A stretch of DNA of 64,000 nucleotides, from IMG/VR virus record IMGVR_UViG_3300022539_000610, positions 50,032 through 114,031 of that record, one strand, 5' to 3'. Each line of letters starts with the position of its first letter. The first letter of the stretch is position 1. The position numbers and the translations under genes were made by a program. Origin of the DNA: a virus. The notes below the pieces were generated by a model, which ran no database searches, was not told where the DNA came from, and saw nothing but the letters and a program-made list of their open reading frames with translations. Shown piece by piece: positions 22,112 through 57,705 of this stretch.

Positions 22112-22306
22112 CTAAAACTTCAATTTTCCTTTCCTTATCTCATCATATGCAATCTTTGATGCTTCTTCTTTTGAATAACCTGCCTTGACAAGCTCCTCCA
22201 TTCTAGTCTGGTGTACCTTTAGTTTTCTTGTAGCAAGGTTATGTCGAGTTTTATAATCTTTACCGCCACCCAAAGCGGCCTCTATTAGATATCTAGCTCT
22301 ACTCAT
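22112..22306 (-). CDS. small leader-tagged protein
   Basis: Starts MSRARYLIE. Confidence 0.7.
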   Translation of the reverse strand: MSRARYLIEAALGGGKDYKTRHNLATRKLKVHQTRMEELVKAGYSKEEASKIAYDEIRKGKLKF

Positions 22307-23377
22307 TTAAACCTCCACCAAATTCTTAAAGACCGCGTTACTGACCAAATGTAGATGGGAGAGGAACAAATCATGTTCAAAAGTATGAGCAACTCCAAAT
22401 AAGTAATAATCACTAGAATACTCAGCTAACTCACCACTGGCAAAAGGAAGAGAGAACCTGGTGACTTGACCAGGCATCAAACTTAAATCACCATCAACAA
22501 TAGCCTCAGCATCCACAATGAATTTACTTCTTGCAAGCTCACTCCTAGTATGAGCTTCTACCATCCACTTTCTATCGTAAGGGAGTAGACTGATTCGTTC
22601 ATAATCAGATGAGTACGAAAATTTACTTGTCGTGGAAGAGGTAACCTCCTCCATTGTATCTGAATAAGAGATAAGTCCCTTAGCTACATGATCGTAGCCA
22701 TAGCCCTTGTGGGATGCCCCTTCTAGGAAATCAACAATACTTCCCTGGTTTCTAATGGTAAACCTTTTAACAGAAGTAATAGCATTTGGAGCAACTATGT
22801 ATTCACGTTGTGGGTTGCCTACAAGAAGTGGAGGTTTAAACAAAACAGTCCCAGCATCAATCGTGAAAAAGAAAGGAACTTCACCCCCTGTACCTACAGC
22901 AATCGGCTGCAAATAGTTTACTATGAATTGAAGATCCGTCAGATTTGGTTGGACATACTCCGCTGTGCCTTTAGTCCCAGTTATATCAGACTCAAGCCCG
23001 GCGCCATCTGCAACTTGAGACACTACTGAGCTAATAACTCCACTCGAATGACACTTAGCCCTTGGTGAGGCGGTTAGAAGGGTAAAACCTGGCTCCACAC
23101 CTACTAATTTCACAGATATATCATTAAAAGATACTCTATTTCTGGATGCTAATACCTTCATCTCATACAAATCAGAATTATCAACATCATGACCATATCG
23201 AATCTTAAACTTACTATAATTCATCTTCTCAAAAAGAATTTCTTGATCAGTATGTTCCAATATTACAACGCAATAAGAAGTGCAAAGGCGAAACCCTCTT
23301 ACATGAATAAGTTGCTTGAGTCCAGTTTCAAACCCAATTATGTCATCACCGACTTCAATAAAAGCCTGGACTCCCAT
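22307..23377 (-). CDS. baseplate hub (gp27 / Mu gp44 / gpD-like)
   Basis: YVQPNLTDLQFI, VDGDLSLMPGQV, YYLFGVAHTF; sits between gp53-like and spike genes. Confidence 0.8.
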   Translation of the reverse strand: MGVQAFIEVGDDIIGFETGLKQLIHVRGFRLCTSYCVVILEHTDQEILFEKMNYSKFKIRYGHDVDNSDLYEMKVLASRNRVSFNDISVKLVGVEPGFTLLTASPRAKCHSSGVISSVVSQVADGAGLESDITGTKGTAEYVQPNLTDLQFIVNYLQPIAVGTGGEVPFFFTIDAGTVLFKPPLLVGNPQREYIVAPNAITSVKRFTIRNQGSIVDFLEGASHKGYGYDHVAKGLISYSDTMEEVTSSTTSKFSYSSDYERISLLPYDRKWMVEAHTRSELARSKFIVDAEAIVDGDLSLMPGQVTRFSLPFASGELAEYSSDYYLFGVAHTFEHDLFLSHLHLVSNAVFKNLVEV

Positions 23378-23719
23378 TTACTGCAACCACTTTGTGAAAA
23401 TTATCGAGGGACTTGGAATTCTTAAAACATCCCCTGTTTTGATATTAAATGGATTGTAAATACTGTTTGCTAACAGAATAATCCACCAATAACTAACCGT
23501 CCTATAGTACTTGTAGCTAATCAAATCAAGTCGGTTCTCATCCTGCCGCTCTACAGTATGATAGATGTCTTCTTCCGACAAAAACTCCTCTTTGCTTTCC
23601 AAGAACATTGGTATAATTGCCGTTTCATCTGTTTTGTATAACGACATAGCCGTAGCCATAGAGTAATTCGGAATTTCCATGGTCGGCTTCGTTATTTTAA
23701 CAAACTCACCCATCACCAT
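23378..23719 (-). CDS. baseplate gp53 / LysM-like protein
   Basis: ENRLDLISYKYY...YWWIILLANSIYNPF.IKTGDVLRIP. Confidence 0.9.
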   Translation of the reverse strand: MVMGEFVKITKPTMEIPNYSMATAMSLYKTDETAIIPMFLESKEEFLSEEDIYHTVERQDENRLDLISYKYYRTVSYWWIILLANSIYNPFNIKTGDVLRIPSPSIIFTKWLQ

Positions 23720-24369
23720 GCCCCGCTGAGAGATTTATCTTCAACACGCTTAGGCCAACCACTTGTATAAAATGCCTGCCCATCTCGAACCGAACCATGA
23801 GTATAATAATCAAAAATTTCAACTCCTAAATTAATATCAGCCCCCATTGGTTTCCCTTCAGACATACTCCAGAGGTTAGACCAGGTAGTAGAAACTTGTG
23901 TTACCAAAACCCTCAAATCATATAGTTGAGCAATAACAAGACGACACAATGGAAAACTTCTTCCAGCAGCAGTTAGAGCAATGCCAATAAAAGCTTCTCC
24001 CACACTATTCGACCCAATAATAGGACAACACAATGACTGTAATTGTGCTATGTTTCTTTGAATATCTTCAATTATCAACCCAGTTGAATATTTTCCAGTT
24101 CTGGTTTTACTAGCACGCCATTCAATGTTGAAAGATAAAGTTTTAGGTTGTACTCCTTCGTTCTTTCTTGCTAAACCAGCTATTTTTGTAGCCCCAGCAA
24201 GTTTTTGAAACGCAAGCTTCACAATAGGATTACCACCAGGTAAAGAGTAAGAAGTGGCAATCGAATCACTTATCCCTTCTCCTTTAACTACGAACTCAAT
24301 TTTAACAGGGGGGTCGATACCGATTGTCTCGATTTTTCCATTAGGTGCTGGTGAAGTTCTCGCAGGCAT
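23713..24369 (-). CDS. tube initiator / baseplate-tube junction protein
   Basis: Position after tape measure; KTLSFNIEW, PLCRLVI, VTQVSTTWS, PMGADINL. Confidence 0.6.
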   Translation of the reverse strand: MPARTSPAPNGKIETIGIDPPVKIEFVVKGEGISDSIATSYSLPGGNPIVKLAFQKLAGATKIAGLARKNEGVQPKTLSFNIEWRASKTRTGKYSTGLIIEDIQRNIAQLQSLCCPIIGSNSVGEAFIGIALTAAGRSFPLCRLVIAQLYDLRVLVTQVSTTWSNLWSMSEGKPMGADINLGVEIFDYYTHGSVRDGQAFYTSGWPKRVEDKSLSGAW

Positions 24370-24370
24370 A

Positions 24371-25525
24371 TTACAGACTCCCTGAACCTAGAAAGGCTAC
24401 TAAAGGATCGTCACGAAAATCTCGCATAGTCTCTGGCTCCCTTGTTCCCACTACTCTAGTTAACAAGTCTTTGATAGAACCCAATAGTCCCACTGTCTCT
24501 TTGTTATCTGTAGTGACATTCACTTTCGTATCTATACTTTTATCTTTCATAGATCGGGCAGGCTGGGTTAGTTTAGTAGCTTCAGCCCTAACAAGGATAG
24601 GTTTAGCCACTACTGACGCAGCCTGTGTTATCCCAACTTCTTCCCTTTTCTTTTGTTTCACCAATACATCTGCCTGTCTTTGAATAATAGGTTTACGAGT
24701 CTCTTGCTCCTTCGCCAGCTTTTCAACTTGTACTTCTCCCTTCTTAGCTCTTCCTAACCCAAAAAGTCCACCAAGCCAGCCACCCACCTTACCAGCAGAT
24801 TTCTTTATTGCATCTATAATACTACCAAGACTAAATGTCTCACCCAACCACTTTATAAAGTCAGAAAACCCTTTGACTATATTCCCCCAACTTATTGCTT
24901 CTTTAATCTTAGCTAAACCTTCATTAATCCAGCCCCATACAGCACTACCAATATTGACAACACCCTCCCAACTCAATGCGTCACCTATCACTTTCAAACC
25001 ACTAGTTATCCATTCACCAACTTTAGTTGAGACGTTGACTATATTTTCCCAGCTTATCTTCTCTTTGATCTTAGCTACTCCTTCATTAATCCAATCATTA
25101 ATTTTACTACTCACGTTAACTATGTTTTCCCAACTAAGCTTTTCCTTAATCTTAGTTAACCCTTCACTGATCCACTCTCCAATCTTAGTTGAAACATTAA
25201 TTACATTTTCCCAACTAATCTTCTCTTTAATTTTACTTACACCTTCATTTATCCAGTCATTAATCTTGGCAGAAATGTTGACTATGTTTTCCCAACTAAG
25301 CTTTTCCTTAATCTTAGTTAACCCTTCACTGATCCACTCTCCAATCCTGCCACTTACATTCACTATGTTTTCCCAGCTTAAAGTATCACTTATCACTTTC
25401 AAACCACTTGTTATCCAACCCCCCACAGTCTTAGCAACATTTACTATCTCTCCCCAATCCTTACTAATCTTCTCTCCTATTATTTTCAAACCCCCAGTTA
25501 TCCAACCCCCCACAGTTCCAGCAAC
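24371..25525 (-). CDS. tape-measure-like protein, C-terminal part
   Basis: Trp-periodic amphipathic repeats; frame opens near 25525, overlapping the upstream ORF. Confidence 0.75.
   Translation of the reverse strand, partial: VAGTVGGWITGGLKIIGEKISKDWGEIVNVAKTVGGWITSGLKVISDTLSWENIVNVSGRIGEWISEGLTKIKEKLSWENIVNISAKINDWINEGVSKIKEKISWENVINVSTKIGEWISEGLTKIKEKLSWENIVNVSSKINDWINEGVAKIKEKISWENIVNVSTKVGEWITSGLKVIGDALSWEGVVNIGSAVWGWINEGLAKIKEAISWGNIVKGFSDFIKWLGETFSLGSIIDAIKKSAGKVGGWLGGLFGLGRAKKGEVQVEKLAKEQETRKPIIQRQADVLVKQKKREEVGITQAASVVAKPILVRAEATKLTQPARSMKDKSIDTKVNVTTDNKETVGLLGSIKDLLTRVVGTREPETMRDFRDDPLVAFLGSGSL
24870..25525 (-). repeat. about 8 tandem 81-bp (27-aa) repeats with a 162-bp higher-order unit
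   Basis: Unit LSWENIVNVSxKIGEWISEGLTKIKEK alternating with a KINDWINEGV variant. Confidence 0.9.
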
Positions 25526-26408: not shown

Positions 26409-26422
26409 TTATTTCTCCTAAA

Positions 26423-28947: not shown

Positions 28948-30462
28948 CTATTCAAGAGAAGCACCATGAGGATGTATAATGTACTTATTGATAATCTTCT
29001 CAGCCACAGTTGTCGGAATCATGTGAAGCTCCGCAACCATCTCATTGTTATTAATACGATATGGAGTGTTGGTATCACTATCACACTTCACCTTAAAAGT
29101 AGTGATCCCTCGATTAGACGCAATCCACTCCAAAAATGGATTAACCAAATTCTCATACTGCCTCCAGGTGATCTCATCATGAGGCTCCCACTGCAAGTAT
29201 CGAACTGCAGTAGCGATTGCTTTTTCAGCATACATCAACATCCTAATGATATTCACATTCTGGAGCAGGGAGGGCTTCCTCTGAAGATTTTTGTTTCCAT
29301 CCACCAGAATTCCATCAACCGTCGAACGGATGGGATTAATGTTATTCATACTACCATAGGTAACCTCAATGTCCCCAACAGTCATATCGAATCTGACATC
29401 AAGTGTATCGTAGAGGATACCACGGTTAGGTCCCGCCGCTGCATACCATGGAAAGGCCACGCTATCAGAGAAAGCAAATATTCCTAACACTCTCACTGAG
29501 GGTGGCACCCAGATCTTTTCCTCATTGTAGGGATCATTAATCTGAATCCAAGGCCCATATATGGCAGCACGATTAGCCGAGGCCACAGGTGTAGTATATG
29601 CCCCAGTGCCCCTAACATAATTAACCATAGTGGCAGCTGTAGTAAGATCTGGGGTATCAAGAACAGCAAGACAATCTGCCCTTGCAACAGCAGTGACAAT
29701 CAAGTAAGCTGCAACAACATCATCATGGTTAAACCCTGGTGCCGATAACAGATTAACATCAACTGTGGTGGCATCAGCAAACAAATCAATACCTCCCGTT
29801 ATGTCAGAGGTACCGAGGGTGTCTGTTCCATCATCTCCCCCAGCCAAAAGCCAAGTAGTGGAAGCATCAGGCACAGCCTCTCCTGTCATTGCAAACTCAA
29901 TATACAGGGAGTTTTCATTGATAATCTTCTCTACATAACGACTGTCTGAGCTTTCATCAAAAACTATGTCTTCCCAGATCTCAAGTGGATCATCTTCATC
30001 TACGTCAGCCCCCAAAGCAAACACCTTTATATTATATACAGTCTCAGTGACTGCTGGGTCGGCTGTAGGCACAGTGTCTGTCTCCATAGTCACCTGAACA
30101 CCGTCTGCCCAGGTCCCTTCTGAAATTGCCCTAACCACCCCTATCTTCTGTGTTACAGAGTCTGCTGAGTAAATATCATCTTCAGCTTTATCTGCATTAC
30201 TGTCTCCAACTCTAACTATCTTTAGTTGGTTACCAAACCTCAAGAAATATAAAGCTGCATGAGCAGCTACCCCGTCATCTCCACTCAAAGGTTCTCCGAA
30301 GTCCTCAAGAAACTGAGGTCGACTAGTTACAAGCGTCACCTCATCCATTGGGCCTTTCGCAAAAGGACCAGTAATACCGCAGATTGAGGTTGAAATCATT
30401 GGTATATACAGACTTCGGTCTATCTCTTCTGAATACACACCAGGTGCAATGTATACAGCCAT
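28948..30462 (-). CDS. tail sheath protein (gp18-like)
   Basis: YIAPGVYSEEIDRS, GPFAKGP, WVPPS, PWYAAAGPNRG, INPI, VKCDSDTNTP. Confidence 0.96.
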   Translation of the reverse strand: MAVYIAPGVYSEEIDRSLYIPMISTSICGITGPFAKGPMDEVTLVTSRPQFLEDFGEPLSGDDGVAAHAALYFLRFGNQLKIVRVGDSNADKAEDDIYSADSVTQKIGVVRAISEGTWADGVQVTMETDTVPTADPAVTETVYNIKVFALGADVDEDDPLEIWEDIVFDESSDSRYVEKIINENSLYIEFAMTGEAVPDASTTWLLAGGDDGTDTLGTSDITGGIDLFADATTVDVNLLSAPGFNHDDVVAAYLIVTAVARADCLAVLDTPDLTTAATMVNYVRGTGAYTTPVASANRAAIYGPWIQINDPYNEEKIWVPPSVRVLGIFAFSDSVAFPWYAAAGPNRGILYDTLDVRFDMTVGDIEVTYGSMNNINPIRSTVDGILVDGNKNLQRKPSLLQNVNIIRMLMYAEKAIATAVRYLQWEPHDEITWRQYENLVNPFLEWIASNRGITTFKVKCDSDTNTPYRINNNEMVAELHMIPTTVAEKIINKYIIHPHGASLE

Positions 30463-30608
30463 AATCACTATCCTCCATTAAGCAACGTTCTCTCCGTCCA
30501 AAATTCAAACGTATACCTAATCCTTCACAGGTAGTGCTGTGGCAGTGATATACTTAAGATCATCCGGCTCAACAAACGTCTCAGGTTAAACTATTATCAA
30601 ATCTCCTT

Positions 30609-30844: not shown

Positions 30845-31135
30845 CTACTCTTCCTCCACCCAGATATAATGAGCTCCGGCCACCCCTTTTGTGACATTAA
30901 AACCTTCATCTTCTAAAGTACGAGATATTATTCCAATATCAGTTCTAGTTAATACTGCCTCAAATGTAATCTCGTACCTCTTCTTCTTCTTATCATAGTC
31001 GATATCATCATAGAGTGCTTTCGCTTTCCTCAACGCATTCTGAATATCCTTAACCCGATCCTGCCCACCAGTTTTCCGAAGATGGGCAACTTCGTCACCA
31101 GTAAGTTTCTCTAGTAAGTTACTTGCTCTACTCAT
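30845..31135 (-). CDS. leader-tagged small protein
   Basis: MSRASNLLE. Confidence 0.75.
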   Translation of the reverse strand: MSRASNLLEKLTGDEVAHLRKTGGQDRVKDIQNALRKAKALYDDIDYDKKKKRYEITFEAVLTRTDIGIISRTLEDEGFNVTKGVAGAHYIWVEEE

Positions 31136-31167: not shown

Positions 31168-31356
31168 TTATTTACGATTCATCTCCTTGGCCTTCTTCTC
31201 AGCTTCTTTCTTATCAGTAAAAGATGCAAAGGCCTTACCTTCACCTTTATCAGTATGAAATACACACCAGGTATCAGTTTTCTTATCATGGTCAACATAA
31301 TACTCACCAACTTCTTTTTTCTCAATTAAATTCAGTAATTCTTTTGCTCTACTCAT
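31168..31356 (-). CDS. leader-tagged small protein
   Basis: MSRAKELLNLIE. Confidence 0.75.
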   Translation of the reverse strand: MSRAKELLNLIEKKEVGEYYVDHDKKTDTWCVFHTDKGEGKAFASFTDKKEAEKKAKEMNRK

Positions 31357-31850: not shown

Positions 31851-32036
31851 TTAAATAATCCGTGACCTTGTAAGTTGTCCCACTATAGAATCTACAAGAA
31901 TTTTAACATCCTTCTTCTCAAGTTTAACTCCACTCTGTATAGCTATCTTAATACCCTCTCTAATAGCGTCGGAGGTTCTCACATCCTTTACTAAACTTCC
32001 TTCAGTCTTTAACAACATATCACCTGCTTTGCTCAT
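31851..32036 (-). CDS. leader-tagged small protein
   Basis: MSKAGDMLLKTE, start after a GGAG RBS. Confidence 0.65.
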   Translation of the reverse strand: MSKAGDMLLKTEGSLVKDVRTSDAIREGIKIAIQSGVKLEKKDVKILVDSIVGQLTRSRII

Positions 32037-32064: not shown

Positions 32065-32499
32065 TCAAAAATCCTTACTTAACCTTACATCTGACTCAAA
32101 CTTTTTCTTATCAACTTCATCCGAGGCAGTTAACTCTTTAAACCCAAAATCTTTATGTGAATCAATCGACTCTTTATTAGTTTTCTCTATATCGACATAA
32201 ACTTTTTTAAATCCATACTTCTTAGCCAGTGCTTCATAAGCCTTAGCAAGATACCCCTTACCACGAAATTCTTTAATTATACTTACTATTAGAAATGGTT
32301 CTTCCTTACCATGAATAAACCCAACTATTCCAACATTTTCACCATTGTCAACAACTGTATGAAATGTTCCTTCCTTCTCCCTAAGAAACATATGTTCATT
32401 CCCTCCAATAGAATTAAAAACAGATCTATCAAAAGGCATAAGAGTAATGGACTCAAACAAACTGTGAATTAAGGAAATCACTTGTTGAGCATGGTTCAT
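32065..32499 (-). CDS. GNAT acetyltransferase with leader
   Basis: EFRGKGYLAKA, NKESIDSHKDFGF; leader MNHAQQVISLIHSLFE. Confidence 0.8.
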   Translation of the reverse strand: MNHAQQVISLIHSLFESITLMPFDRSVFNSIGGNEHMFLREKEGTFHTVVDNGENVGIVGFIHGKEEPFLIVSIIKEFRGKGYLAKAYEALAKKYGFKKVYVDIEKTNKESIDSHKDFGFKELTASDEVDKKKFESDVRLSKDF

Positions 32500-33582: not shown

Positions 33583-33873
33583 CTACTTCTCCTCGTGGCC
33601 ATAGGCATCATAACGATCAGCAGGACCTTCTACCTTGTCATCATCATTATTATTGTCACCAGAAGATTTCTTTCTCTCCCCGGGTGCACCTTTGCCAGTT
33701 AAAGGTTTCCCACATTCAGGACATTCTTTTTGATTACAAGGAGCACCCCTCTCGTGTTCCTCTTCGTAAGAACATTCAGGACAGACACACACATCTGTTC
33801 CTCCAGCTCCCAGTCTGGGGCCACCTTGTCCCTGTTGTTCTATTATTCCTAACACCTCTCTTGCTGTTACCAT
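33583..33873 (-). CDS. leader-tagged Cys-rich zinc-ribbon protein
   Basis: MVTAREVLGIIE, then GAGGTDVCVCPECSYEEEHERGAPCNQKECPECG. Confidence 0.75.
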   Translation of the reverse strand: MVTAREVLGIIEQQGQGGPRLGAGGTDVCVCPECSYEEEHERGAPCNQKECPECGKPLTGKGAPGERKKSSGDNNNDDDKVEGPADRYDAYGHEEK

Positions 33874-45898: not shown

Positions 45899-46626
45899 AA
45901 CTCCTCTCCTTTGTAATTTTGTTTTATTCTATCCACAATCATATCAAAATGCTTACTGTTGAATTCAAATGCAACTACATCCATATCGTTCATCAAAGCC
46001 ACAACTATGTCTGTACCAGATCCACCAAACAAACTTAACAACTTTCCTCCTGGCACAGCGACTGGCTTTACACAGTAATCGACCACCTCCACGGGCTTGG
46101 CACCATCCTTGAACTTGTTGTCCTCAATCTTTAGTATGGGAAAAGGAAAGACATCAGGATATTTCCCATGGAAAGCAGACTCAAATCCGTAATAAAGAAT
46201 GGTCTCATGAGACCGTTGGAAATTGGTCCCGTCATCGAAATCGAAATGGTTTTCATATGTCCAGCTTATCCACCTCCTGAAGGGAATATCATAGTTATCA
46301 TCAAGCACCGATTTTATGATACTTGCCCCCTCCGGATAGTTGAAGATGAACAATGATCCATTGTTCCTCAGCTTAGACAAACAAGAAGTGAACAGTCTTA
46401 TGTAACACGATCGAAAATCCAGCCTCCCTTGCAGCTGGCCCAAATCGAAATCGTCCCAATCAGCATCTGCCCATCCATACTCAGGCCAGTTGCCGTAAGG
46501 CCCGTCACATATGATTACATCGAACATCTCATCTAATGTAGAAACCGAAAGATTGTTCTCAAGATACAACTGTACTTTACAAATTCGATTTTTCCCTTGA
46601 ATACAAAAGTCTCTTTCCGTTACCAT
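45895..46626 (-). CDS. N4/N6 DNA methyltransferase (beta-class order)
   Basis: FDVIICDGPY (DPPY variant), HETILYY, KPVEV, LFGGSGT. Confidence 0.85.
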   Translation of the reverse strand: MVTERDFCIQGKNRICKVQLYLENNLSVSTLDEMFDVIICDGPYGNWPEYGWADADWDDFDLGQLQGRLDFRSCYIRLFTSCLSKLRNNGSLFIFNYPEGASIIKSVLDDNYDIPFRRWISWTYENHFDFDDGTNFQRSHETILYYGFESAFHGKYPDVFPFPILKIEDNKFKDGAKPVEVVDYCVKPVAVPGGKLLSLFGGSGTDIVVALMNDMDVVAFEFNSKHFDMIVDRIKQNYKGEEL

Positions 46627-46967
46627 ATCTTCCCTTTCTCTTTATTCTTCATACCAGGGCTTAGTATCTTTGGTTTTATCCCACTCTTAGTAGCTTCTTC
46701 ATCTGACCAGTTAATGTCCTGAGTAGGCTCCAGTCCGGCTACTATATGGTAGGTACCATCCTTTACTACTTTTCCATTAACATAAGCTTTACCATCCTTC
46801 ACAACCAAGTGTTCTTGAGTAAATAGATTGCACAAATGGTCATACAAATTGCAATGATGCAGTTCCTCAGTACCTTTCTTATCCTCTCCTGGATGTAAAT
46901 GATGAAGTAGATACTCATAATCTTTAATGATCCCTAAAGCTTCTAATACATTTCGTGCTTTTGACAT
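46620..46967 (-). CDS. leader-tagged His-rich protein
   Basis: MSKARNVLE after a GAGG RBS. Confidence 0.7.
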   Translation of the reverse strand: MSKARNVLEALGIIKDYEYLLHHLHPGEDKKGTEELHHCNLYDHLCNLFTQEHLVVKDGKAYVNGKVVKDGTYHIVAGLEPTQDINWSDEEATKSGIKPKILSPGMKNKEKGKIW

Positions 46968-46980: not shown

Positions 46981-48852
46981 TTACCCACTTATGCCTCGAA
47001 TGGCCATGTACGCATGCGCTCGAAATCGTGGGTCCTCTATCGCACTCACAGCCCCAATGGCGGCGAGGGCAGCAGTGGCTTTTGCTCGTTCCTCCTCCGT
47101 CGCATCTGCCTTCCTCAATATCTTCACTGATCGAAGAACATCACGAAGAACCCTCTGATCAATTCCTTTTTCATGAATAGCAATTTTACGTTCAAAACCA
47201 ACTTCATGCAGTAACGAATCTAAAAGAGATTCCTTCTCAGGTTCTTCTCCTTCAGGTGGAGTTTCCTCCTCCTCTTCCTCTTCACCACCTTTTTTGGGCT
47301 CTGGAGGTTCCTCTTTCTTCTTCGGTTTTGGTTTCACCTTTGGTTTTGGCTCCGGTTCAGGCTCTGGTTCTTCCTCACCCTCTTCTGGAGGTTCTTTAAT
47401 AAAGTTCGTCGCCCCACCAAAAATACTCACTTGCCTGTAGAGCCAAGCCTGGAACTTATTCATATCAATAAGCTTCGCAAGATGTTCATCCTCCTTAAAC
47501 TCAGAAATTACTCGCTTAACTGTATCTACAACCCCGATAACCGCATCGAATAACTCCACTTTATCCAACTCATCAACTCTTACTAACTCATTCCTAAAAG
47601 AAACATCAATATCTCTGGGAACAACACTAGGGAAACCTTTATTTACAAGATGAATGAGGGCTATTTGTTTTGCCCCCATAGCAATAGAAGTTTGAATGTT
47701 CTTCAACACTCGCACATAACGGGCATAACGTTTAAGAGTTTCTGTCCTCGTCCCTTCACCTCCAAACAACAACTCAGGCGGGTAGCCAATAGTCGAGCAA
47801 ATAACTTTCCTATTATCTTCTATTCTATCAGATAGTGCTTCAAGAGATCTATCCTCCTTCACATCAGATAGACTTCGAAGTTCTCCCTTATCACTAAAGA
47901 TTGGAAGAATCTTAAGGGAGCCAGCAAGGTTAACAATATCTGCTACTGAAAACTCATCAGTACTTTTATTGATTCCTACCTTTTTATTAAGAAAACGCTC
48001 ATACTTCCTACATGCCTCAAAAGCATCCTTGGGGTTAGTTGCTGGAGGCATCTGAAGACCAACTAAATTTCCCTTCAAAATATCATTCAACTTCTTTGTT
48101 GGTACCAGGAGCTCAATCAACATGAGCTCCTTAATCTTAGAGAGAACCCCATAGAAAACACTCCTCCCTACTCGGGTGTACGTGGGAAGAGTCTTTCCTT
48201 CAAAGTCTTTCTTATCAGTAAGATCAACACCAATTTTACTTGTTACAAACTCAGTGCCAACCTGTATCCGAAGCTTGTACTTATTAATTGCAAAATGGGC
48301 AAACTCGTAAGGACGCTTCACTGCTATGTCCTTCTGAACCCCAGGAGTGAGAAAGACATAAGGGAAACCATGTTTGTAGAAAGCCACTACGTTCTTCTGA
48401 TCAACGTCGTCCAGGAGGTCGACAACCCCTTCTCCTTTCTCAAGCTTTACCCGCAGGACGTGCTCTCCTTGTCGAACTAGGTCCAGAGCTAAGTCACCAA
48501 TGAATTGATCAAAATCAAACTTATCTTGCAGGTGCTGAAGCTCCTCATTGATAGCATCATCCCCGGAGCTCAACTGAATCACCTCTCCAGTGGTAACATC
48601 TGGAGTGAGTGCATCCTCAACTATATTTCTTGCAAGAGCATCTACGAGATAAAAAGACTTTATCTTTTCCATCTCCTGGAGGAATTCTTTCTTTGTAGAA
48701 ATAGCTTTTTGGTAAGTAGTCATCCATGCCTGAGCAATCTCGAAGTCAGGGATGAAATCTGTAATTCCCTCTTCCTTCTTCTGAGGCTCAGATTGGGTAG
48801 TGGGTTGACCACCGAAACCAAAGAATTTAATTTTTGAAAACAGTCCTGCCAT
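46981..48852 (-). CDS. portal protein (gp20-like) with acidic/Pro linker and extra C-terminal domain
   Basis: Between terminase and protease; IVEDALTPD, GRSVFYG, GYPPELL; 623 aa. Confidence 0.85.
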   Translation of the reverse strand: MAGLFSKIKFFGFGGQPTTQSEPQKKEEGITDFIPDFEIAQAWMTTYQKAISTKKEFLQEMEKIKSFYLVDALARNIVEDALTPDVTTGEVIQLSSGDDAINEELQHLQDKFDFDQFIGDLALDLVRQGEHVLRVKLEKGEGVVDLLDDVDQKNVVAFYKHGFPYVFLTPGVQKDIAVKRPYEFAHFAINKYKLRIQVGTEFVTSKIGVDLTDKKDFEGKTLPTYTRVGRSVFYGVLSKIKELMLIELLVPTKKLNDILKGNLVGLQMPPATNPKDAFEACRKYERFLNKKVGINKSTDEFSVADIVNLAGSLKILPIFSDKGELRSLSDVKEDRSLEALSDRIEDNRKVICSTIGYPPELLFGGEGTRTETLKRYARYVRVLKNIQTSIAMGAKQIALIHLVNKGFPSVVPRDIDVSFRNELVRVDELDKVELFDAVIGVVDTVKRVISEFKEDEHLAKLIDMNKFQAWLYRQVSIFGGATNFIKEPPEEGEEEPEPEPEPKPKVKPKPKKKEEPPEPKKGGEEEEEEETPPEGEEPEKESLLDSLLHEVGFERKIAIHEKGIDQRVLRDVLRSVKILRKADATEEERAKATAALAAIGAVSAIEDPRFRAHAYMAIRGISG

Positions 48853-48891: not shown

Positions 48892-49107
48892 TCATATGGC
48901 ACCTAAATACCTTCGTAAGGCCATCGCTAATGGATCAGTCTCTTTAAACCAATCTTTCAATGTCCACTTCCTCTTCAAAGCAGACTTAAATCTATCCTCT
49001 ATGTTCTGAACTACCTCTTTCTTAACACGGTCATAGGTTTCTTTCTTAAGAGGTTCACCCCCCACCTCCACTTCCATAGTTCTCAAAAGTTCAGTTGCTT
49101 TGCTCAT
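48892..49107 (-). CDS. leader-tagged small protein
   Basis: MSKATELLRTME. Confidence 0.75.
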   Translation of the reverse strand: MSKATELLRTMEVEVGGEPLKKETYDRVKKEVVQNIEDRFKSALKRKWTLKDWFKETDPLAMALRRYLGAI

Positions 49108-49121: not shown

Positions 49122-51023
49122 CTAAACTTGCTCAACCTTGATAACGGCTGAATTAAAAATTGACTCATACAAATCAGCCTGTGTACTTCCTTCATCAATA
49201 ATTTCTTTCATATATGCTTCATGAAACTCTTCTTTTCCGTAGAACTTTTCCATTTGCTCATAAGCATTCCAAAGACTCCCAGTTACAGCGTCAGCAATAT
49301 CCTTACTACCTCGACGTTGGCCTTGGGACTTATCCTCATCTCCTTCCGTGTCACTTGCATAGAGGGGGTGGTCTATCTTATCCCCCAAGTCAAGAAGGTT
49401 CTTGAGTTCAGTCCTCAATCTCGGGTGCTTTACCCCGTTATATCTTCCCTCAAGCAAGACATTTTTAAAATGATCATATGGAGCACGGTTCTTATCAACA
49501 GATATAATCTTTGAATCTACTCCCATAAGCCAGAGATCCTGTTTAAGGTTCTCAGACTGGTACCCATCAGCAGTCACCGAAGCCACAGTCACTCCAGCTT
49601 GCATAAGATCCCTAACAAAGTTCTTTATCTTATAGATCGGAACATCTTGTCCTGCCTTCGACTTGAGGGCCATCACAAAGTCAGTCCAGAATATTGGTTC
49701 CTTAGTAGTAAGAAACTCTCCTGTACCTGTGTCCCGCCTCGTAACAGTAACAAACCCTATGATGCACGACATCGCTATACCCGCTAAGTCATGCCTAATA
49801 CCCAAGTCAACATGGATGAACCGTGGCCTTTTATGCTTCAATACCTCTTGGATGAGAAGGTACTTAATCAGCACATCACTCTGGTCATAGAAATCAAGAG
49901 CGATAATGTCCTTCGTGACAGGATTTCTTCTAATCAAGCCTTCTTCTATTTTCTCCACTGACGAGATGAACTTATGAGTAGAAAATACTGCTTTACCAGC
50001 CAATTCTCTGATTGCACTGTAAGGATCATCAAGGAAATCGTCATAGTGAATAACAGGTACTTCTATTACTCGTGACTCATCAAGTCCCCGCATTTGTCGA
50101 GCATGTGAGATAATCGCCGGATCATGAGTATCGTCTCCAATGAACATCTTAAACATCTCACAGTTCTGATACTGAACATCAGGCTTCGCCACCCAAATAG
50201 GATAATCAAAAACTCGAACCCTGGGTTTCCTCTGTACCTGCTTGATATGCATCTCCAGGAATGCCGCTTCATCTGCCTTCGAGGAGTCAAGCCACATGTG
50301 TCCAGGCCACTTAGTGAGAAACCTTGTCTGCATTCTTCTCTTGTTTGCCGTATAGTTCAGATATGCCTGATTATTTACACGATTCTGAAAGTTAAGCTCA
50401 GACAGTACCACCCCACCTACAGCCTGTCCAATGGTGTGAGTAAATCTAGAACCTTCAACGAGGTCAAGATTCTTTTGAAACATAGACTTCCTTGCCCCAC
50501 CTTCATTCAAACGAGACTTCAAGAAAGGTGAGGATTGAATCCACTCTATTAGCTCATCAAATAGAGCTCCTTTTGCTGTCTTCAATGTCTCACAATAGAT
50601 ACCATAGAGAATCCTTGTTGTTTTCCCAAGATTAGGAAAATGAAGCTGTGGACTCCTAAGAAACAACATCTTTGTCCAATCATACAAGACCCCTATCTTT
50701 GCCTTCCAGGTTTTCCCACCCCCTAGACTTCCAGTTAATACAATTTCATCGTAAGGGCTATAGAAAGGATTTGGATAAATCTCCCTCAATCCAGCTCGAC
50801 GAATGGGGAAAACAGCTGTCTTGTCCTCCATGTCATTCCAGAGGACATTCTTGAGATAGTCCGCTCCATCCATGAACTCATCAATGGTGGGTGGGACTTC
50901 CTCGTATCCTGCAACCTTTGCCAGAGACTTTACAGTATCATTGTAGCCATGGGCAGAGACCATCTGAGTAAGGAGTTGTGTACCAGGATCAGTTTTCTCC
51001 TGTTTAGGTTTTCGACGGGCCAT
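49122..51023 (-). CDS. terL: terminase large subunit
   Basis: VLTGSLGGGKT Walker A, VLSELNF Walker B, FIHVDLG, ADGYQS, KIDHP, SKDIADAV nuclease motifs. Confidence 0.93.
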   Translation of the reverse strand: MARRKPKQEKTDPGTQLLTQMVSAHGYNDTVKSLAKVAGYEEVPPTIDEFMDGADYLKNVLWNDMEDKTAVFPIRRAGLREIYPNPFYSPYDEIVLTGSLGGGKTWKAKIGVLYDWTKMLFLRSPQLHFPNLGKTTRILYGIYCETLKTAKGALFDELIEWIQSSPFLKSRLNEGGARKSMFQKNLDLVEGSRFTHTIGQAVGGVVLSELNFQNRVNNQAYLNYTANKRRMQTRFLTKWPGHMWLDSSKADEAAFLEMHIKQVQRKPRVRVFDYPIWVAKPDVQYQNCEMFKMFIGDDTHDPAIISHARQMRGLDESRVIEVPVIHYDDFLDDPYSAIRELAGKAVFSTHKFISSVEKIEEGLIRRNPVTKDIIALDFYDQSDVLIKYLLIQEVLKHKRPRFIHVDLGIRHDLAGIAMSCIIGFVTVTRRDTGTGEFLTTKEPIFWTDFVMALKSKAGQDVPIYKIKNFVRDLMQAGVTVASVTADGYQSENLKQDLWLMGVDSKIISVDKNRAPYDHFKNVLLEGRYNGVKHPRLRTELKNLLDLGDKIDHPLYASDTEGDEDKSQGQRRGSKDIADAVTGSLWNAYEQMEKFYGKEEFHEAYMKEIIDEGSTQADLYESIFNSAVIKVEQV

Positions 51024-51041: not shown

Positions 51042-51308
51042 TTACTTCGGGTCAGGTTTGACGTCTTCGATGTCAACTATGGTTTTAACCTGCTCGATAC
51101 CCACAGCTACATTCCCAGGGCCTTTGAGATTCGTAACCCCGGTGTCATCGACAGTAAAAGTCTTTCCTACATCAAGTCCAAAAGTCTCTGCGTGTCCCTT
51201 GTCTTTAAGGGCAACTACTTTCACCTTCTTAAATTTTGTTACTTTATCACCCTTCGCTGGGGTGATCACCTCTTCCAGTTTCTTTACCATTTCACTTGCT
51301 CTACTCAT
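51042..51308 (-). CDS. leader-tagged small protein
   Basis: MSRASEMVKKLEE. Confidence 0.75.
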   Translation of the reverse strand: MSRASEMVKKLEEVITPAKGDKVTKFKKVKVVALKDKGHAETFGLDVGKTFTVDDTGVTNLKGPGNVAVGIEQVKTIVDIEDVKPDPK

Positions 51309-52950: not shown

Positions 52951-53388
52951 TCATACGTTTCTAACTTCATTATAAAAATCAGTAAGTCTCTTGATATGAG
53001 TATTTTTATTGAATACATCTCCTGGACCTGTACTTTGATCAGTATCAACATTAAATTTCTTTCTTATCGCAGGTTCAATATAAGCGTGCATTGCCTTATC
53101 AGCTCTCCAAATATATGTACTTCCTTTAGAATCGTAAACAGATCTTGTTTTCGGCTCCCCACGAAGCATATTCGGATATTCAGCTCTCATCTCCCTTGCT
53201 ATACTTTGATAATCGCTTGATGATGGATTCTTTATGACTTCAACTTTCCGTCCAGATACATTAACATAGAAATAATCAGTTTCAAATTGACTCTTAACAA
53301 ACTCTTCTGCGCTCTTATACTTCCTTGCTTCTTTAGCAAGATATTCAAACTCTTTACCTTTCTTTAGAATAGAGGAAGCTCTACTCAT
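52951..53388 (-). CDS. leader-tagged protein
   Basis: MSRASSILKKGKE; VEVIKNPS...YIWRADKAMH. Confidence 0.75.
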   Translation of the reverse strand: MSRASSILKKGKEFEYLAKEARKYKSAEEFVKSQFETDYFYVNVSGRKVEVIKNPSSSDYQSIAREMRAEYPNMLRGEPKTRSVYDSKGSTYIWRADKAMHAYIEPAIRKKFNVDTDQSTGPGDVFNKNTHIKRLTDFYNEVRNV

Positions 53389-53447: not shown

Positions 53448-53894
53448 TCATTTATAATAATTCAAATAAACCTTTTTATCTAATTTCAATAAAAACTTAC
53501 TAAACTCATACCTCACATTAGACTTAACTTTAGTTATTGGCAACCAACTACTACCATCATAAAACTCAATATCTTCTGGAGGTACATTCCTCTTTACCCA
53601 GAATTCTTTAGCATCAAGATTGTCAGCATCTTTTAGCTTATCTTTAGATACTCTTAGCAATAACACTTCAGGTTTATCTTTCTTTTGAGCAACATTTTGT
53701 GAAACATAGTACCAAGACTCATTAGGAGAAAATGCAAAATATACCCTGTCAGTATAACTCCCAAACCATGAAGCCGATCTTGGTGTTAACCCTTTTGATT
53801 TTATTGCATCGGCATTACCAGAATATGACACATGATAGCCATATCCTGTATCTATCTCATTTACCTTCTTAATTATCTTCTGAGCCCTATTCAC
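53448..53894 (-). CDS. leader-tagged Tpt1/KptA-like ADP-ribosyltransferase-fold protein
   Basis: MNRAQKIIKKVNE; YHVS...IKSKGLTP, RVYFA, LLLRV, EFWV..VPPEDI. Confidence 0.7.
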   Translation of the reverse strand: MNRAQKIIKKVNEIDTGYGYHVSYSGNADAIKSKGLTPRSASWFGSYTDRVYFAFSPNESWYYVSQNVAQKKDKPEVLLLRVSKDKLKDADNLDAKEFWVKRNVPPEDIEFYDGSSWLPITKVKSNVRYEFSKFLLKLDKKVYLNYYK

Positions 53895-53900
53895 TTTACT

Positions 53901-54245
53901 CTACTCATCTTTTATTACTCCACCAATGTCCTGCCTGACAATATCATCTTCCGCATAGGAAACAAACATTTCCTCGATTACTACAGCCTTTTCGTATACC
54001 CGAAATTCGTGTTTCCACTCTTCACCTGGTGCAGTAGTGAATTCTTGCCCCTTCGTCAAAACTACTTCTCCATACTTTGTGCGGATTCCAATCTTTCCTT
54101 CTAAAACAACAAACAAGTTATACTTAGCTTGATGGTAATGAAAAGAGCATCTTGTTCCTTTTTTTAGAAAGAGTACAGAAGTGGCGTGAGTTGAGTCGCT
54201 ACGCAAGAGCCACCGTTCTCCCCAAATTTGTAAGGTACGTTGCAT
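53901..54245 (-). CDS. cupin domain protein
   Basis: IWGER, CSFHYHQAK, FVVLEGKI, HEFR. Confidence 0.85.
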   Translation of the reverse strand: MQRTLQIWGERWLLRSDSTHATSVLFLKKGTRCSFHYHQAKYNLFVVLEGKIGIRTKYGEVVLTKGQEFTTAPGEEWKHEFRVYEKAVVIEEMFVSYAEDDIVRQDIGGVIKDE

Positions 54246-54526
54246 TACTTCCCGCTTTCTCTCTCCTTAACTGCTTTCTTGATACTATCAGGAATGGAAG
54301 ATAATTTCTTACCCAAATGCTTTCCAATTTTCACATCAACACCAACAGTCCCTGAATACTGATTAAATCCTTGAGGAGAATCAGGGTTATCACTCATCCC
54401 ATAAACATCATCCCCTATGATAACAGTGTACCTGTCCGCAGTCTTCCCACCATTATCGTAAACCACAACTTTACCTTTCTCAAAAACATTACCAATAATT
54501 TCCAATATCTCTTTCGCTCTACTCAT
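54245..54526 (-). CDS. leader-tagged protein
   Basis: MSRAKEILEIIGNVFE; YDNGGKTADRYTV...PQGF...HLGKK. Confidence 0.75.
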   Translation of the reverse strand: MSRAKEILEIIGNVFEKGKVVVYDNGGKTADRYTVIIGDDVYGMSDNPDSPQGFNQYSGTVGVDVKIGKHLGKKLSSIPDSIKKAVKERESGK

Positions 54527-54623: not shown

Positions 54624-54824
54624 TTACCTTTTACCAATCAACCTTTTAAAAGATTTATCTAACTTAATAGTAGGAACTGTCACTCCCGCTGTGTCTTGAA
54701 TAGCCGATTGAATTTCACTCATGAAAGTATTCCAAGATGATGGGTCTAGATCACTTAAGGCCTTATGGATGTCGGCGACTTTAGTTTCCTTCAAACCATA
54801 GATTAAATTACTTGCCTTGCTCAT
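54624..54824 (-). CDS. leader-tagged paralog of 51919-52383 (possibly frameshifted)
   Basis: MSKASNLIYGLKE|TKVADIHKALSDLDPSSWNTFMSEIQ. Confidence 0.75.
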   Translation of the reverse strand: MSKASNLIYGLKETKVADIHKALSDLDPSSWNTFMSEIQSAIQDTAGVTVPTIKLDKSFKRLIGKR

Positions 54825-55774
54825 CTTATCCTCCTTAAAATCTTGGACACCTTCGTCTTATTCAACGCTCTATCTAACTTCCTATTCAGTAACTCCTCAG
54901 TCAGGAAGCTCTCATCTATTCCATTCCTCACCCTATCCACAGCCTTATCCACAGAGGAGCCTAAACAATAAACACTCACAAGAAACTCCCGAAGCTGAGC
55001 AAACGAGAAACCGTCAGTCTTATCAGCCAGATCCTCAAGGGTCTTCTCATCTTCATGCATCCCAAGTTTATGCTTCAAATACGCCAACCTTCCTTCAGCG
55101 GGTGGGTTCTTGATCTCAATAATCTTATCAATTCTTCCTGGTCTCCGAATCCTCTCCGACAACTTGTTATAGTAATTAGTTGTAAAGAGGAAAAGTACTC
55201 CATCAGTCTGAGCATCCCCATCCAGTAGTTCCAAAATGGGATGTTCACCCCCATAGTCAAACACACGGTCAATGTCCTCCATAACAATTAAGACATGCCG
55301 GTCGGGCTCTACATCTCGATACACTGCCAGGGCTTCCTTCAATATGTAGGAGTCCTTGACGATGAATACTACATCCCCTCTGGCAACACAGTCTTCCATT
55401 ACTAGCTTTAGCAAACAACTTTTTCCTACACCAGGTTCACCTCGGAGCAATACTCCTCTCTTATGGGTAAAGCCAAGTTTGACATACTCGTTCTTCCGTT
55501 GCCAGAAGTCCTTAATCTCCCCTAAGACTTCTTTGTGCCTAGAATCATCAAAGCGAAGCAGTTCATCAGTATTGAGTTCATGAAACTCAAACAAGATCCC
55601 AGCCATTGTGCTCTTCACCTGATACATCCCAGGGTCAAGTTTTTCCTGAGTCACTATAGCACCCATAGGTAAAAAGGAATTCTTTTGAACTCTAAACTGA
55701 GTGTAGACTCGTTCTCTTTTTCTGGCATTTTCGATCGTCTTGACTACTTCTTTTGCTTCTCTTCTCATCTTCAA
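54821..55774 (-). CDS. AAA+ ATPase
   Basis: KRGVLLRGEPGVGKS, VMEDID, FTTNY, RRPGRIDK. Confidence 0.93.
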   Translation of the reverse strand: MKMRREAKEVVKTIENARKRERVYTQFRVQKNSFLPMGAIVTQEKLDPGMYQVKSTMAGILFEFHELNTDELLRFDDSRHKEVLGEIKDFWQRKNEYVKLGFTHKRGVLLRGEPGVGKSCLLKLVMEDCVARGDVVFIVKDSYILKEALAVYRDVEPDRHVLIVMEDIDRVFDYGGEHPILELLDGDAQTDGVLFLFTTNYYNKLSERIRRPGRIDKIIEIKNPPAEGRLAYLKHKLGMHEDEKTLEDLADKTDGFSFAQLREFLVSVYCLGSSVDKAVDRVRNGIDESFLTEELLNRKLDRALNKTKVSKILRRIR

Positions 55775-56013
55775 CTCCTACCGTAGGCAGCTCTGGGGAG
55801 GGCTGCTCCTTTAAACTGTTTATATGCCTGTTCCAATTGGTTCATGTCAAGAGCTACACCAAAGATGCTTTTAAACCTCTCTGCCTCATGCTTTACTTTT
55901 GCAAAACTAGCACGGGGATCGTCAATCATCTGTGCGATTGCAACGACGATCTCGTAATAATTTATTCTTTTCTCTGTGGTAAGTAAAAGTAAAGTCAGAT
56001 GTCCAGCTCTCAT
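55771..56013 (-). CDS. hypothetical protein
   Basis: Tiled 80-aa ORF. Confidence 0.55.
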   Translation of the reverse strand: MRAGHLTLLLLTTEKRINYYEIVVAIAQMIDDPRASFAKVKHEAERFKSIFGVALDMNQLEQAYKQFKGAALPRAAYGRS

Positions 56014-56225
56014 TTACCTTTCTCCTTTTTCATTCTTCTGGCCTCGTTGATATAGAAGTCGATTCTCCCAGCAGCCCCTTCAAGCTCAGCACTCATCTTT
56101 AACAACGTGTCCTGGATCGCTTCACAAATATCTAAGAAGCTAAGAGGAGCCTCAGCAACAGGCTCCGAACATTGCTCACATCCCTCCTCGTTGACAGAGG
56201 AGAGAATCTTTTTTGCTTTGCTCAT
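56010..56225 (-). CDS. leader-tagged small protein
   Basis: MSKAKKILSSVNE. Confidence 0.75.
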   Translation of the reverse strand: MSKAKKILSSVNEEGCEQCSEPVAEAPLSFLDICEAIQDTLLKMSAELEGAAGRIDFYINEARRMKKEKGK

Positions 56226-56229
56226 TGCC

Positions 56230-56457
56230 TTAACTCTTAAAGTCATCAGCTTTTAGGCCTGATGTGAACTTGTCCAGGGCCTTCATGAAAGAATTGCTCT
56301 CCGGTGCATCAGAAAACGCAAGGCCACGAAGCAGCTGGATTGCCTTTCCCTGCTCTTCATTAGACCCACTCCAGGATGTGTCGATCAATTCCTTGATAAT
56401 TGCCATAGCATCGACTGCTTCTTTTACTAAACTTAAAATTTCATTTGCTTTGTTCAT
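56230..56457 (-). CDS. leader-tagged small protein
   Basis: MNKANEILSLVKE. Confidence 0.75.
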   Translation of the reverse strand: MNKANEILSLVKEAVDAMAIIKELIDTSWSGSNEEQGKAIQLLRGLAFSDAPESNSFMKALDKFTSGLKADDFKS

Positions 56458-56504
56458 AATATCCTCACACTATCTTAATAGTTTCTATACCTCATTGCCT
56501 ATGT

Positions 56505-56711
56505 CTACTTTGACAATTTAGATAGTTCTGATGCCATCTTCACAGCATCCTCCTTAGTAAGAAAATATAGTTCCGCAGAATTCATGGGTTTAATACCTAT
56601 GAAACCATCTTTAGTTTCTGCAATAGAGAACTTCGTAGGACCCTTCCTACTGTCCACATTAATCATAGTTACTTCACTAATCTTATTCAATACTTCTGTT
56701 GCTTTTGTCAT
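56505..56711 (-). CDS. leader-tagged small protein
   Basis: MTKATEVLNKISE. Confidence 0.75.
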   Translation of the reverse strand: MTKATEVLNKISEVTMINVDSRKGPTKFSIAETKDGFIGIKPMNSAELYFLTKEDAVKMASELSKLSK

Positions 56712-56896
56712 TGTAGTTTTACCCCCAAAACTCGATTGATTAAATCCTTAAAAGATTCCCAGTCCCCTTTGCCAATAACTATTTCCATCTCCTTAATCTG
56801 CTTAGGAGATGCCTGGCGATAGAACTTCACAAGCTCTACAAAACCAATGTTTCCTTTGTAGGCAAACTCACTTAAAATCTGCTCAGCTCTATTCAC
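56708..56896 (-). CDS. leader-tagged small protein
   Basis: MNRAEQILSE (GTG start). Confidence 0.7.
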   Translation of the reverse strand: MNRAEQILSEFAYKGNIGFVELVKFYRQASPKQIKEMEIVIGKGDWESFKDLINRVLGVKLQ

Positions 56897-56897
56897 T

Positions 56898-57218
56898 TTA
56901 CTTGAAAGGAACTCCCTTCTTTACCACATCAAGAATCGGGGTCCATGCCTTATAATCCTTTAAATCAAACGTTGCCTCTGGAGCAGTATGTATCACTTTA
57001 CCTGAATAAGTAAACGTGAGGTTTGCCCCTACCCGGTCTATCACCAGAGGTTTGTCTCCATACTGAAACACCATGTGGTTTGCATTGTTCTCAGTAGTGT
57101 CGATAGGATTAAATTCAAGCTCACGAGCACAATTACGCACCGCAGCGTCCACCAATGATAACTTTTGCATTTCTTGCAATCCTTCAATTTCCTTAATAAG
57201 TTTTGATGCTTTGCTCAT
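56898..57218 (-). CDS. leader-tagged protein
   Basis: MSKASKLIKEIEGLQE. Confidence 0.75.
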   Translation of the reverse strand: MSKASKLIKEIEGLQEMQKLSLVDAAVRNCARELEFNPIDTTENNANHMVFQYGDKPLVIDRVGANLTFTYSGKVIHTAPEATFDLKDYKAWTPILDVVKKGVPFK

Positions 57219-57256
57219 TTTCCTTTTCCTCCTCGATAGTAAGTCTATTTACCTTA

Positions 57257-57320
57257 TTTAAAACCTTGTTAGATTAGTAAAACACCCGCTAATTTCAATG
57301 ATCTCCTGTTAGGGTACCAT
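57257..57320 (+). repeat. dispersed intergenic element, copy 3
   Basis: TTTAAAACCTTGTTAGATTAGTAAAACACCCGCTAATTTCAATGATCTCCTGTTAGGGTA. Confidence 0.85.
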
Positions 57321-57326
57321 ATAAGC

Positions 57327-57488
57327 CTAAGCAGCTTCGTCCTCTTCTTCCCTTGTATTTGAAAGGTCTGTCCTGTTGAATTGGAGAACTTTAAAATTCC
57401 CACTTCTCTCCAACCACTTGATAAACTCAGATTGAATTACTTCATATTCTCCTTCCTCTAAAATCAGAATAGAAACAAGTCTTGACAT
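57327..57488 (-). CDS. small ORF with a weak leader-like start
   Basis: Manual translation MSRLVSILILEE... (53 aa). Confidence 0.45.
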   Translation of the reverse strand: MSRLVSILILEEGEYEVIQSEFIKWLERSGNFKVLQFNRTDLSNTREEEDEAA

Positions 57489-57492
57489 TCCA

Positions 57493-57705
57493 TCACCCCA
57501 TACTTAAAGACTGAACTACATCATACAAATCATCAAAAGAGATCTCTGTCCCTGCAGCATATTCTCTGGTCAAGTACTCTAAATCAACATTTGGTGAACC
57601 TCTATGCAAAGTAAGAATCTCCTGAGCTGCTAATTCAAGTTCAGCTGTGATTCTTGGTTTTCTTAATTCATCAAGAGTGTTAATTATTTCTTTTGCTTTA
57701 TTCAT
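57493..57705 (-). CDS. leader-tagged small protein
   Basis: MNKAKEIINTLDE. Confidence 0.75.
   Translation of the reverse strand: MNKAKEIINTLDELRKPRITAELELAAQEILTLHRGSPNVDLEYLTREYAAGTEISFDDLYDVVQSLSMG

Follow-up and report, generated by a model that had tools for sequence, protein, structure and literature searches.

About 29 otherwise unrelated proteins of an uncultured phage share an N-terminal leader that is probably a capsid-targeting propeptide of the T4 type

Results

A leader shared by about 29 proteins

About 29 otherwise unrelated proteins of an uncultured phage, or some 14% of all genes in its genome, begin with the same short leader, which is probably a tag for loading them into the capsid, because it ends in the motif that a T4-like head protease should cut. 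The phage is known from the virus record IMGVR_UViG_3300022539_000610 (a single record of 114,031 bp with 40% G+C). We analysed its right-hand 64 kb (64,000 nucleotides, positions 50,032 to 114,031), hereafter the window; coordinates refer to the window unless genome positions are specified. The leader has the consensus M-S-[KR]-A-x-x-[ILV]-[LI] and a length of 9-16 residues, and 28 of the tagged proteins are encoded in the window, with one more outside. Gene content and gene order place the phage in the T4 superfamily, as a distant member; a megablast search with 18 kb found no close relative among deposited phages. Our favoured interpretation, which we hold to be fairly likely, is that the leader is a greatly expanded version of the T4-type capsid-targeting propeptide.

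A preliminary description of the window had listed 27 such N-termini, all of which we found at the minus-strand genes to which they had been assigned. The whole genome, read in six frames, contains the pattern M[STN][RK]A 27 times: 24 of the occurrences lie on the minus strand, and in 22 an upstream stop is no more than 21 codons away. When a position-specific profile of the leader was run over the same six frames with a cut-off of 8 bits or more, it gave 25 matches, which are all in frame on the coding strand and, with one exception, at gene starts. The total of about 29 adds to the profile matches two copies with GTG starts (53894 and 56896) and looser variants, of which four were among the listed genes (32065, 33583, 43317 and 44290). 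Two copies are additional to the earlier list, one at 44092, internal to an open reading frame (ORF), and one at genome position 37738, outside the window. Six genes have their true start at a Met within the longest ORF, just behind a ribosome-binding site (32036, 35108, 46967, 54526, 56225 and 57705).

Nearly all window genes are on the minus strand, and the tagged ones are located in and around the head module. The leader is concentrated at 22112-57711, where about 45% of the called genes carry it; of the roughly 128 genes elsewhere in the genome, 1 does. None of the glycan-cluster, tail, baseplate, terminase, portal or methyltransferase proteins has it, which had been noted before.

Selection on the peptide

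The shared start might be thought a by-product of the boundary of a shuffling cassette, of a start-codon context that favours expression, or of descent from one family of paralogues. The tagged genes do occupy variable slots between core genes, and bacteria in general favour M-S-K as a protein start. Nevertheless, such an origin is very improbable, being largely refuted by the codon-position pattern and by the lack of similarity between the bodies. For residues 2-8, identity among the copies reaches 0.67 at first and second codon positions but 0.41 at third positions, and in the 30 bases upstream it is 0.34, against a random level of 26%. The leaders use five codons for Ser, three for Arg (AGA, AGG and CGT) and four for Ala. 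Because first and second positions are conserved, third positions and upstream bases are not, and codons vary, both a repeated DNA cassette and a mere effect of start context are ruled out. A DNA-level repeat or cassette boundary would be expected to conserve synonymous sites and flanks, and this conservation is absent. The leader is a peptide-level signal under peptide-level selection. Its conservation also extends to residues 7-13 and to the closing Glu, and the peptide persists in genomes of 30-46% G+C.

The bodies that follow the leader are unrelated, as the preliminary description had it: once the first 18 residues had been cut off, an all-against-all BLASTP gave no E-value of 0.1 or less. 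They include distinct folds and enzymes (ADP-ribosyltransferase (ART), GNAT, SWIM, zinc ribbon and AAA), which speaks against a by-product, and diverged paralogy within one small-protein family was rejected for want of any pairwise similarity. The identifiable bodies are a GNAT acetyltransferase, an ART-PolyVal ADP-ribosyltransferase, a SWIM zinc finger, a zinc ribbon and a conserved acidic protein. With nearly all tagged proteins as queries, Pfam and PHROGs yielded no families but GNAT, ART-PolyVal and one whose function is unknown.

A signal peptide of the Sec, Tat or lipoprotein type was also considered and rejected. Such peptides need a basic start followed by a hydrophobic stretch of about 10-15 residues, which the leaders do not have: they contain only 2-4 hydrophobic residues, interspersed with charged ones, and a Glu at the end. 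In structure models, leader residues 3-13 form a helix of low confidence that precedes the folded body.

Cleavage motif and head protease

The leaders tend to close with the kind of site at which T4 head proteins are cut. As had been observed on first inspection, most end in [LIV]-x-E: the motif falls within residues 6-17 in 24 of the 28 tagged proteins, against 28 of 160 untagged minus-strand genes (17.5%; Fisher p = 3e-12). The closing Glu is mostly at residue 9, 10, 12 or 13 (range, residue 9 to 16), and the commonest residue after it is Ala, which likewise follows the motif in T4 gp23 (L-T-E) and gp22 (I-A-E), as read from the T4 record. T4 gp21 cleaves after the Glu of L/I-x-E, and an Asp in its place blocks processing, not targeting (PMC9026906). 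The first ten residues of T4 IPIII are sufficient for capsid targeting; within the T4 leader, residues 4 and 7 matter in targeting and residues 8 and 10 in processing (PMC9026906).

The presumed leader-removing enzyme is encoded at 40296-41858 on the minus strand. It is a prohead protease of the T4 gp21 family (residues ~37-183) joined to a scaffold part that is coiled and contains repeats, the whole being a polypeptide of 520 residues whose N-terminal 190 match the head-maturation-protease family (phrog_207, 6.6e-17) and whose C-terminal 330 are helical and repeat-bearing. Its match to Peptidase_S77 (PF03420) is weak (E 0.0017, below the Pfam cut-off), and PF03420 is listed for most of its 65 database homologues. 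The gp21-like protease of the preliminary description is supported by hhalign, in which a profile of 15 homologues aligned with T4 gp21 at a probability of 95.7% (E 9.8e-9) with conservation of the His and of the V-S-S-R Ser motif. Its Rhizobium phage homologues bear the annotation "prohead core scaffolding and protease protein". About six LG(T/S)xxE(I/L) units lie in 40296-41300 (minus strand) and are kept in the consensus of the 15 homologues; these repeats are a candidate leader-docking surface or head length ruler.

One address, changing cargo

Relatives were recovered by an alignment-based search of viral contigs with the protease; a single-protein search of these contigs had found none. 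Proteases 29-41% identical are encoded by 21 viral contigs, and 77-78%-identical relatives exist among the database homologues. The same leader stands on different cargo sets in six of these contigs, L001, L002, L004, L006, L010 and L011 (proteases 32-39% identical; G+C 30-46%). Around the head module there are at least 14 tagged genes in 20 kb in L002, about 16 in L010, and 5-8 in each of L001, L004 and L011. The leader is thus shared by a whole uncultured clade and not special to the phage of the window. Homologues in the head-module stretches of the relatives exist for only 4 of the 28 tagged bodies, so the cargo is exchanged quickly while the address persists. When the profile was searched over the whole records of three complete relatives, leader copies were also found far from the head genes. 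In distant contigs (L016 and L021) there are other flavours of N-terminal amphipathic peptide ending in hydrophobic-x-Glu. Two flavours occur together at 1394-17117 of L010 (an IMG/VR contig of 60.8 kb), one like that of the window and one on T-K-A-Q-E-M-L-x-F-L. Some within-genome homogenisation of leaders is seen in L004 and L010.

Cultured phages also carry tagged genes: five in Ralstonia RP13, three or four in Vibrio 150E35-1, and one each in Acinetobacter Ab1-TPeters and Rhizobium Y65. The genes concerned are ORF65-67, 79 and 80 of RP13, P0010, P0011, P0014 and P0015 of 150E35-1, CDS0153 of Ab1-TPeters and gp286 of Y65. The major capsid protein of RP13 has a leader-like start ending in I-N-E, like four of the five tagged proteins of this phage.

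Orthologues of the more conserved tagged proteins support the view that the leader is a modular, removable N-terminal extension on head-module proteins. The SWIM protein (33895-34464, minus strand, 189 aa), whose zinc finger has the form CxC...CxH, is a neighbour of the capsid gene in every relative, among them cultured phages of Rhizobium, Acinetobacter and E. coli; in the nearer relatives the leader is present as an extra 10-25 residues, and the orthologues in L005, L008, L015 and L016 begin at the conserved body. The zinc-ribbon protein (33583-33873, minus strand, 96 aa, Cys-rich, with a variant leader) has orthologues in L001, L002 and L010, all leader-bearing, in which Met1, Ala4 and Glu12 are invariant and the other leader positions drift; the L010 orthologue bears the flavour of L010 itself. 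The acidic 195-aa protein (43317-43904, minus strand, variant leader) occupies the interval between portal and protease, where T4 has its core proteins gp67 and gp68. Among the 110 cluster representatives of its family, 30 have the strict leader and a further 29 a loose form. In its structure model (pLDDT 84, pTM 0.80), a low-confidence helix at residues 4-13 is followed by a confident body, for which no match was found in PDB or BFVD; its fold may thus be undescribed.

The fourth case, an AAA ATPase (54821-55768, minus strand) with a degenerate leader of 13 residues, lies within the tagged array, upstream of terminase. Its orthologues in L001 and L002 are 54-57% identical, the one in L001 (54%) having a canonical leader, and both the canonical and the degenerate leader precede the start of similarity. 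A different reader is conceivable, with the leader docking proteins to a hub other than the capsid (a phage AAA ATPase, a chaperone or unfoldase) or serving as a timed-degradation signal for a host protease. AAA+ unfoldases are known to recognise short N-terminal peptides, the ATPase is conserved and sits inside the tagged array, and the lack of leader homogenisation within the genome would fit a widely conserved reader. Yet the ATPase is itself tagged in L001, and a hub of this kind would give no role to the closing [LIV]-x-E, to the protease of gp21 type or to the leader-like starts of capsid and core proteins. The presence of the leader in phages of hosts as different as Ralstonia, Vibrio, Acinetobacter and Rhizobium argues, moreover, for a reader encoded by the phage. 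We consider a non-capsid hub distinctly improbable.

Gene order and tagged genes of the window

The genes described here are all on the minus strand. Followed in the direction of transcription from 57705, the order is a small-gene array, terminase, portal, a variable block, protease-scaffold and capsid gene, and then a second variable block, sheath, tube and baseplate. No enrichment of the T4 late-promoter motif TATAAATA was seen in the window.

The tagged array starts with a gene of 70 aa from its internal Met (57493-57705), followed by genes of 106 aa (56898-57218), 62 aa with a GTG start (56708-56896), 68 aa (56505-56711), 75 aa (56230-56457) and 71 aa from an internal Met (56010-56225). 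Beyond the AAA ATPase come proteins of 66 aa (54624-54824) and of 93 aa from an internal Met (54245-54526), the body of the latter matching phrog_4496, of unknown function. The next one (53448-53894, 148 aa, GTG start) is an orphan for which a homologue search returned nothing; there is a weak lead to an ADP-ribosyltransferase-like fold, as ESM Atlas gave only leads of this type, at 0.93, and the single-sequence model was poor (pLDDT 52). Tagged proteins of 145 aa, without [LIV]-x-E (52951-53388), and 88 aa (51042-51308) precede the large terminase (49122-51023), which is untagged and 40% identical to the TerL of Rhizobium phage RHph_Y65 (E 7e-118). A tagged protein of 71 aa (48892-49107) separates it from the portal protein (46981-48852), also untagged and 37% identical to the Y65 portal (E 1e-111).

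Between portal and protease, the tagged genes encode 115 aa from an internal Met (46620-46967), 78 aa (44956-45192), a basic protein of 140 aa (44517-44939) and a protein of 76 aa with a variant leader (44290-44520), whose L002 orthologue has a canonical one. Amid them, at 45197-46626, lie an untagged asparagine-synthase-like (PP-loop) protein and a DNA methyltransferase. A 129-aa ORF with a full internal leader copy (43904-44293) and the acidic protein are followed by the 151-aa ADP-ribosyltransferase (42861-43316; ART-PolyVal, PF18760, 2.2e-7, above the curated cut-off), whose sole homologue is 60% identical and has a shortened leader ending in L-L-E. Then come an untagged, conserved 237-aa protein (42147-42860), which is immediately upstream of the protease in all relatives and is a candidate prohead core protein, and a tagged protein of 82 aa (41902-42150).

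The gp23-type major capsid protein gene (36967-40196; PF07068, 1.4e-16) contains at least two group I introns. The intron matches, at 37172-37492 and 38596-38856, score 44 and 37 bits, slightly below the Rfam cut-off. The gene is in at least three pieces, with an HNH endonuclease ORF (38700-39800) in an intron and another ORF (36494-36892) after the last exon. The N-terminus of the protein has I-x-E at residues 4-6 and a hydrophobic-x-E near residue 33 that is conserved in the clade.

Past the capsid gene, a basic tagged protein of 209 aa (34479-35108), whose start overlaps the stop of the upstream gene and whose leader ends in Asp, not Glu, precedes the SWIM and zinc-ribbon proteins. They are followed by the GNAT acetyltransferase (32065-32499, 144 aa; PF00583, 4.6e-8; phrog_1249, 1.2e-9), which has a variant 16-aa leader, and by proteins of 61 aa from an internal Met, without [LIV]-x-E (31851-32036), 62 aa (31168-31356) and 96 aa (30845-31135). 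The tail sheath is at 28948-30468, and a last tagged gene of 64 aa, whose leader ends in L-I-E at residue 9, is in the baseplate/tail module (22112-22306). The only tagged gene outside the window encodes a 105-aa zinc-ribbon protein (genome 37421-37738, 12.3 kb before the window); its start is in frame inside a longer ORF and has its own strong ribosome-binding site.

Discussion

If the leader works as in T4, the following sequence of events can be proposed. The amphipathic leader helix, consisting of the consensus and 0-7 residues before the closing Glu, would dock the new protein on the assembling prohead core, itself made of the protease-scaffold fusion and conserved acidic core proteins. 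The shell of major capsid protein would close round this core, and the gp21-family protease would cut after the Glu of [LIV]-x-E, freeing the mature cargo within the head, from where it would probably exit with the DNA at infection. Docking, cleavage, packaging and ejection are inferred steps. That the cargo is ejected to act in the next host stands at even chances at best, and is based on the parallel to IPI* and Alt, the enzymes among the bodies and a turnover that resembles an arms race. Alt is an enzyme packaged by T4 (PMC9026906). Since the cargo consists of fast-turnover small orphans and a few enzymes (ADP-ribosyltransferase and GNAT), it plausibly serves host takeover or counter-defence.

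The tagged proteins might also be targeted to the prohead and cut there without being injected effectors, either because they act inside the head, in the core, in DNA condensation or in the determination of head size, or because they are degraded and expelled like pieces of scaffold. The conserved tagged proteins are indeed core genes of the head module (the acidic 195-aa, SWIM and zinc-ribbon proteins). Of the 28 mature bodies 16 are basic, like DNA-associated internal proteins, an excess that is weak and non-significant. Most T4 core proteins, moreover, are cut up and leave the head (PMC9026906). However, the ADP-ribosyltransferase and GNAT bodies fit inert filler poorly, and the rapid turnover of the cargo resembles the arms-race pattern of T-even internal proteins (PMC3012670). 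A purely internal role for the tagged proteins is therefore unlikely.

Several results weigh against a capsid-targeting propeptide. Four leaders have no [LIV]-x-E, one of them closing with Asp, and for the maturation site of the major capsid protein there are two candidates, neither of which could be confirmed. The leader copy at residue 68 of the ORF at 43904-44293 has no ribosome-binding site; it may stem from a recent joining of two genes, or mark a start of translation or a processing site within the ORF. One tagged gene is in an early-type region and one in the baseplate module, and an AAA ATPase is an unusual cargo. Leader similarity in the tag-positive clade is about the same between genomes (0.20) as within them (0.21), so there is no clear co-variation with a genome-specific receptor. 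Most important, we found in the literature no virion proteome or N-terminal sequence for the phage of the window or any tagged relative.

More broadly, the leader may be a single capsid address, readable from sequence, across a deep, largely uncultured clade of the T4 superfamily with a fused protease-scaffold, from which the packaged and injected proteome could be listed from the genome. We put this forward tentatively, as somewhat less than an even prospect. If the leader does work as in T4, the proteins carried in before gene expression become readable from sequence, with about 29 candidates here and dozens in the relatives. The pre-made proteins injected by T4 include the anti-restriction factor IPI* and the ADP-ribosyltransferase Alt. 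Nearly all candidates lack a known function and most are small orphans, so they would form a large untapped pool of first-strike factors for host takeover or counter-defence, and the tagged list is a focused place to look for new activities of both kinds. The leader could also become a tag for loading foreign proteins into the capsids of phages of hosts other than E. coli. What distinguishes the system is its scale, its conservation over a deep uncultured clade, and the existence of cultured members with 1-5 tagged genes, which make the idea directly testable.

Comparison with known systems

A literature search found no paper on this leader consensus, this clade or such an expansion, and the closest known systems share only some of its features. 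Polyvalent proteins of phages and conjugative elements, the source of the PF18760 family, resemble it by the ART-PolyVal domain in 42861-43316. Domains of polyvalent proteins are thought to be delivered along with DNA. The product of 42861-43316 is not itself a polyvalent protein, since it is a single domain of 151 aa with its own leader and not a giant multidomain protein.

In phage P1, an N-terminal peptide of DarB is sufficient to bring a protein or reporter into the capsid for delivery (PMC9024508). However, DarB is the single known client of this peptide, which has about 30 residues, no consensus shared with other proteins and a different head-assembly system. Giant phages of the phiKZ type (phiKZ, 201phi2-1 and SPN3US) come nearer in that many virion-internal or ejected proteins are matured after Glu by a T4-related protease: their head and inner-body proteins are processed at S/A/G-x-Glu by a gp21-related enzyme (PMC9026906, PMC5694885, PMC10052503). 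They differ in having no defined common short address peptide, in propeptides that are long and diverse, and in small P3 residues instead of Leu, Ile or Val.

The closest parallel is the capsid targeting sequence of T4, on which Mullaney and Black reportedly worked in 1996. A short N-terminal capsid-targeting peptide, removed by protease from diverse internal proteins, is established in T4 and its close relatives (PMC3012670, PMC9026906). It is found on IPI, IPII and IPIII, and gp21 also removes leaders from Alt, gp24, gp67 and gp68 (PMC9026906, PMC3012670). The systems are alike in an N-terminal leader of 10-19 residues on unrelated, fast-evolving proteins, ending in hydrophobic-x-Glu, in a gp21-family protease encoded beside scaffold and a gp23-type capsid gene, and in cargo that includes an ADP-ribosyltransferase (Alt in T4). 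The overall interpretation of the preliminary description is partly supported, by the peptide-level signal, the gp21 motif, the protease, the head-module location and the ADP-ribosyltransferase cargo. Its view of the tag as different in sequence from that of T4 holds only in part. The consensus does differ from the IPII/IPIII leader (Ser2, a basic residue 3 and Ala4), but its layout is that of the leaders of T4 head proteins, and it comes close to the leader of the vertex protein gp24. The N-termini of gp24, gp21, gp22 and gp67 in the T4 record have the same arrangement, a hydrophobic pair at 7-8 and then x-Glu. The gp24 leader shares with common copies Met1, Lys3, Glu6, Leu7, Leu8 and the closing Glu (6 of 10 positions, in peptides too short for statistics).

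The system departs from that of T4 in other respects too. The distance to the Glu varies here, from residue 9 to 16. One consensus is kept over a deep, mostly uncultured clade with proteases 30-40% identical. Finally, protease and scaffold are a single polypeptide in the phage of the window, and its tagged genes number about 29 (some 14%), against a handful in T4.

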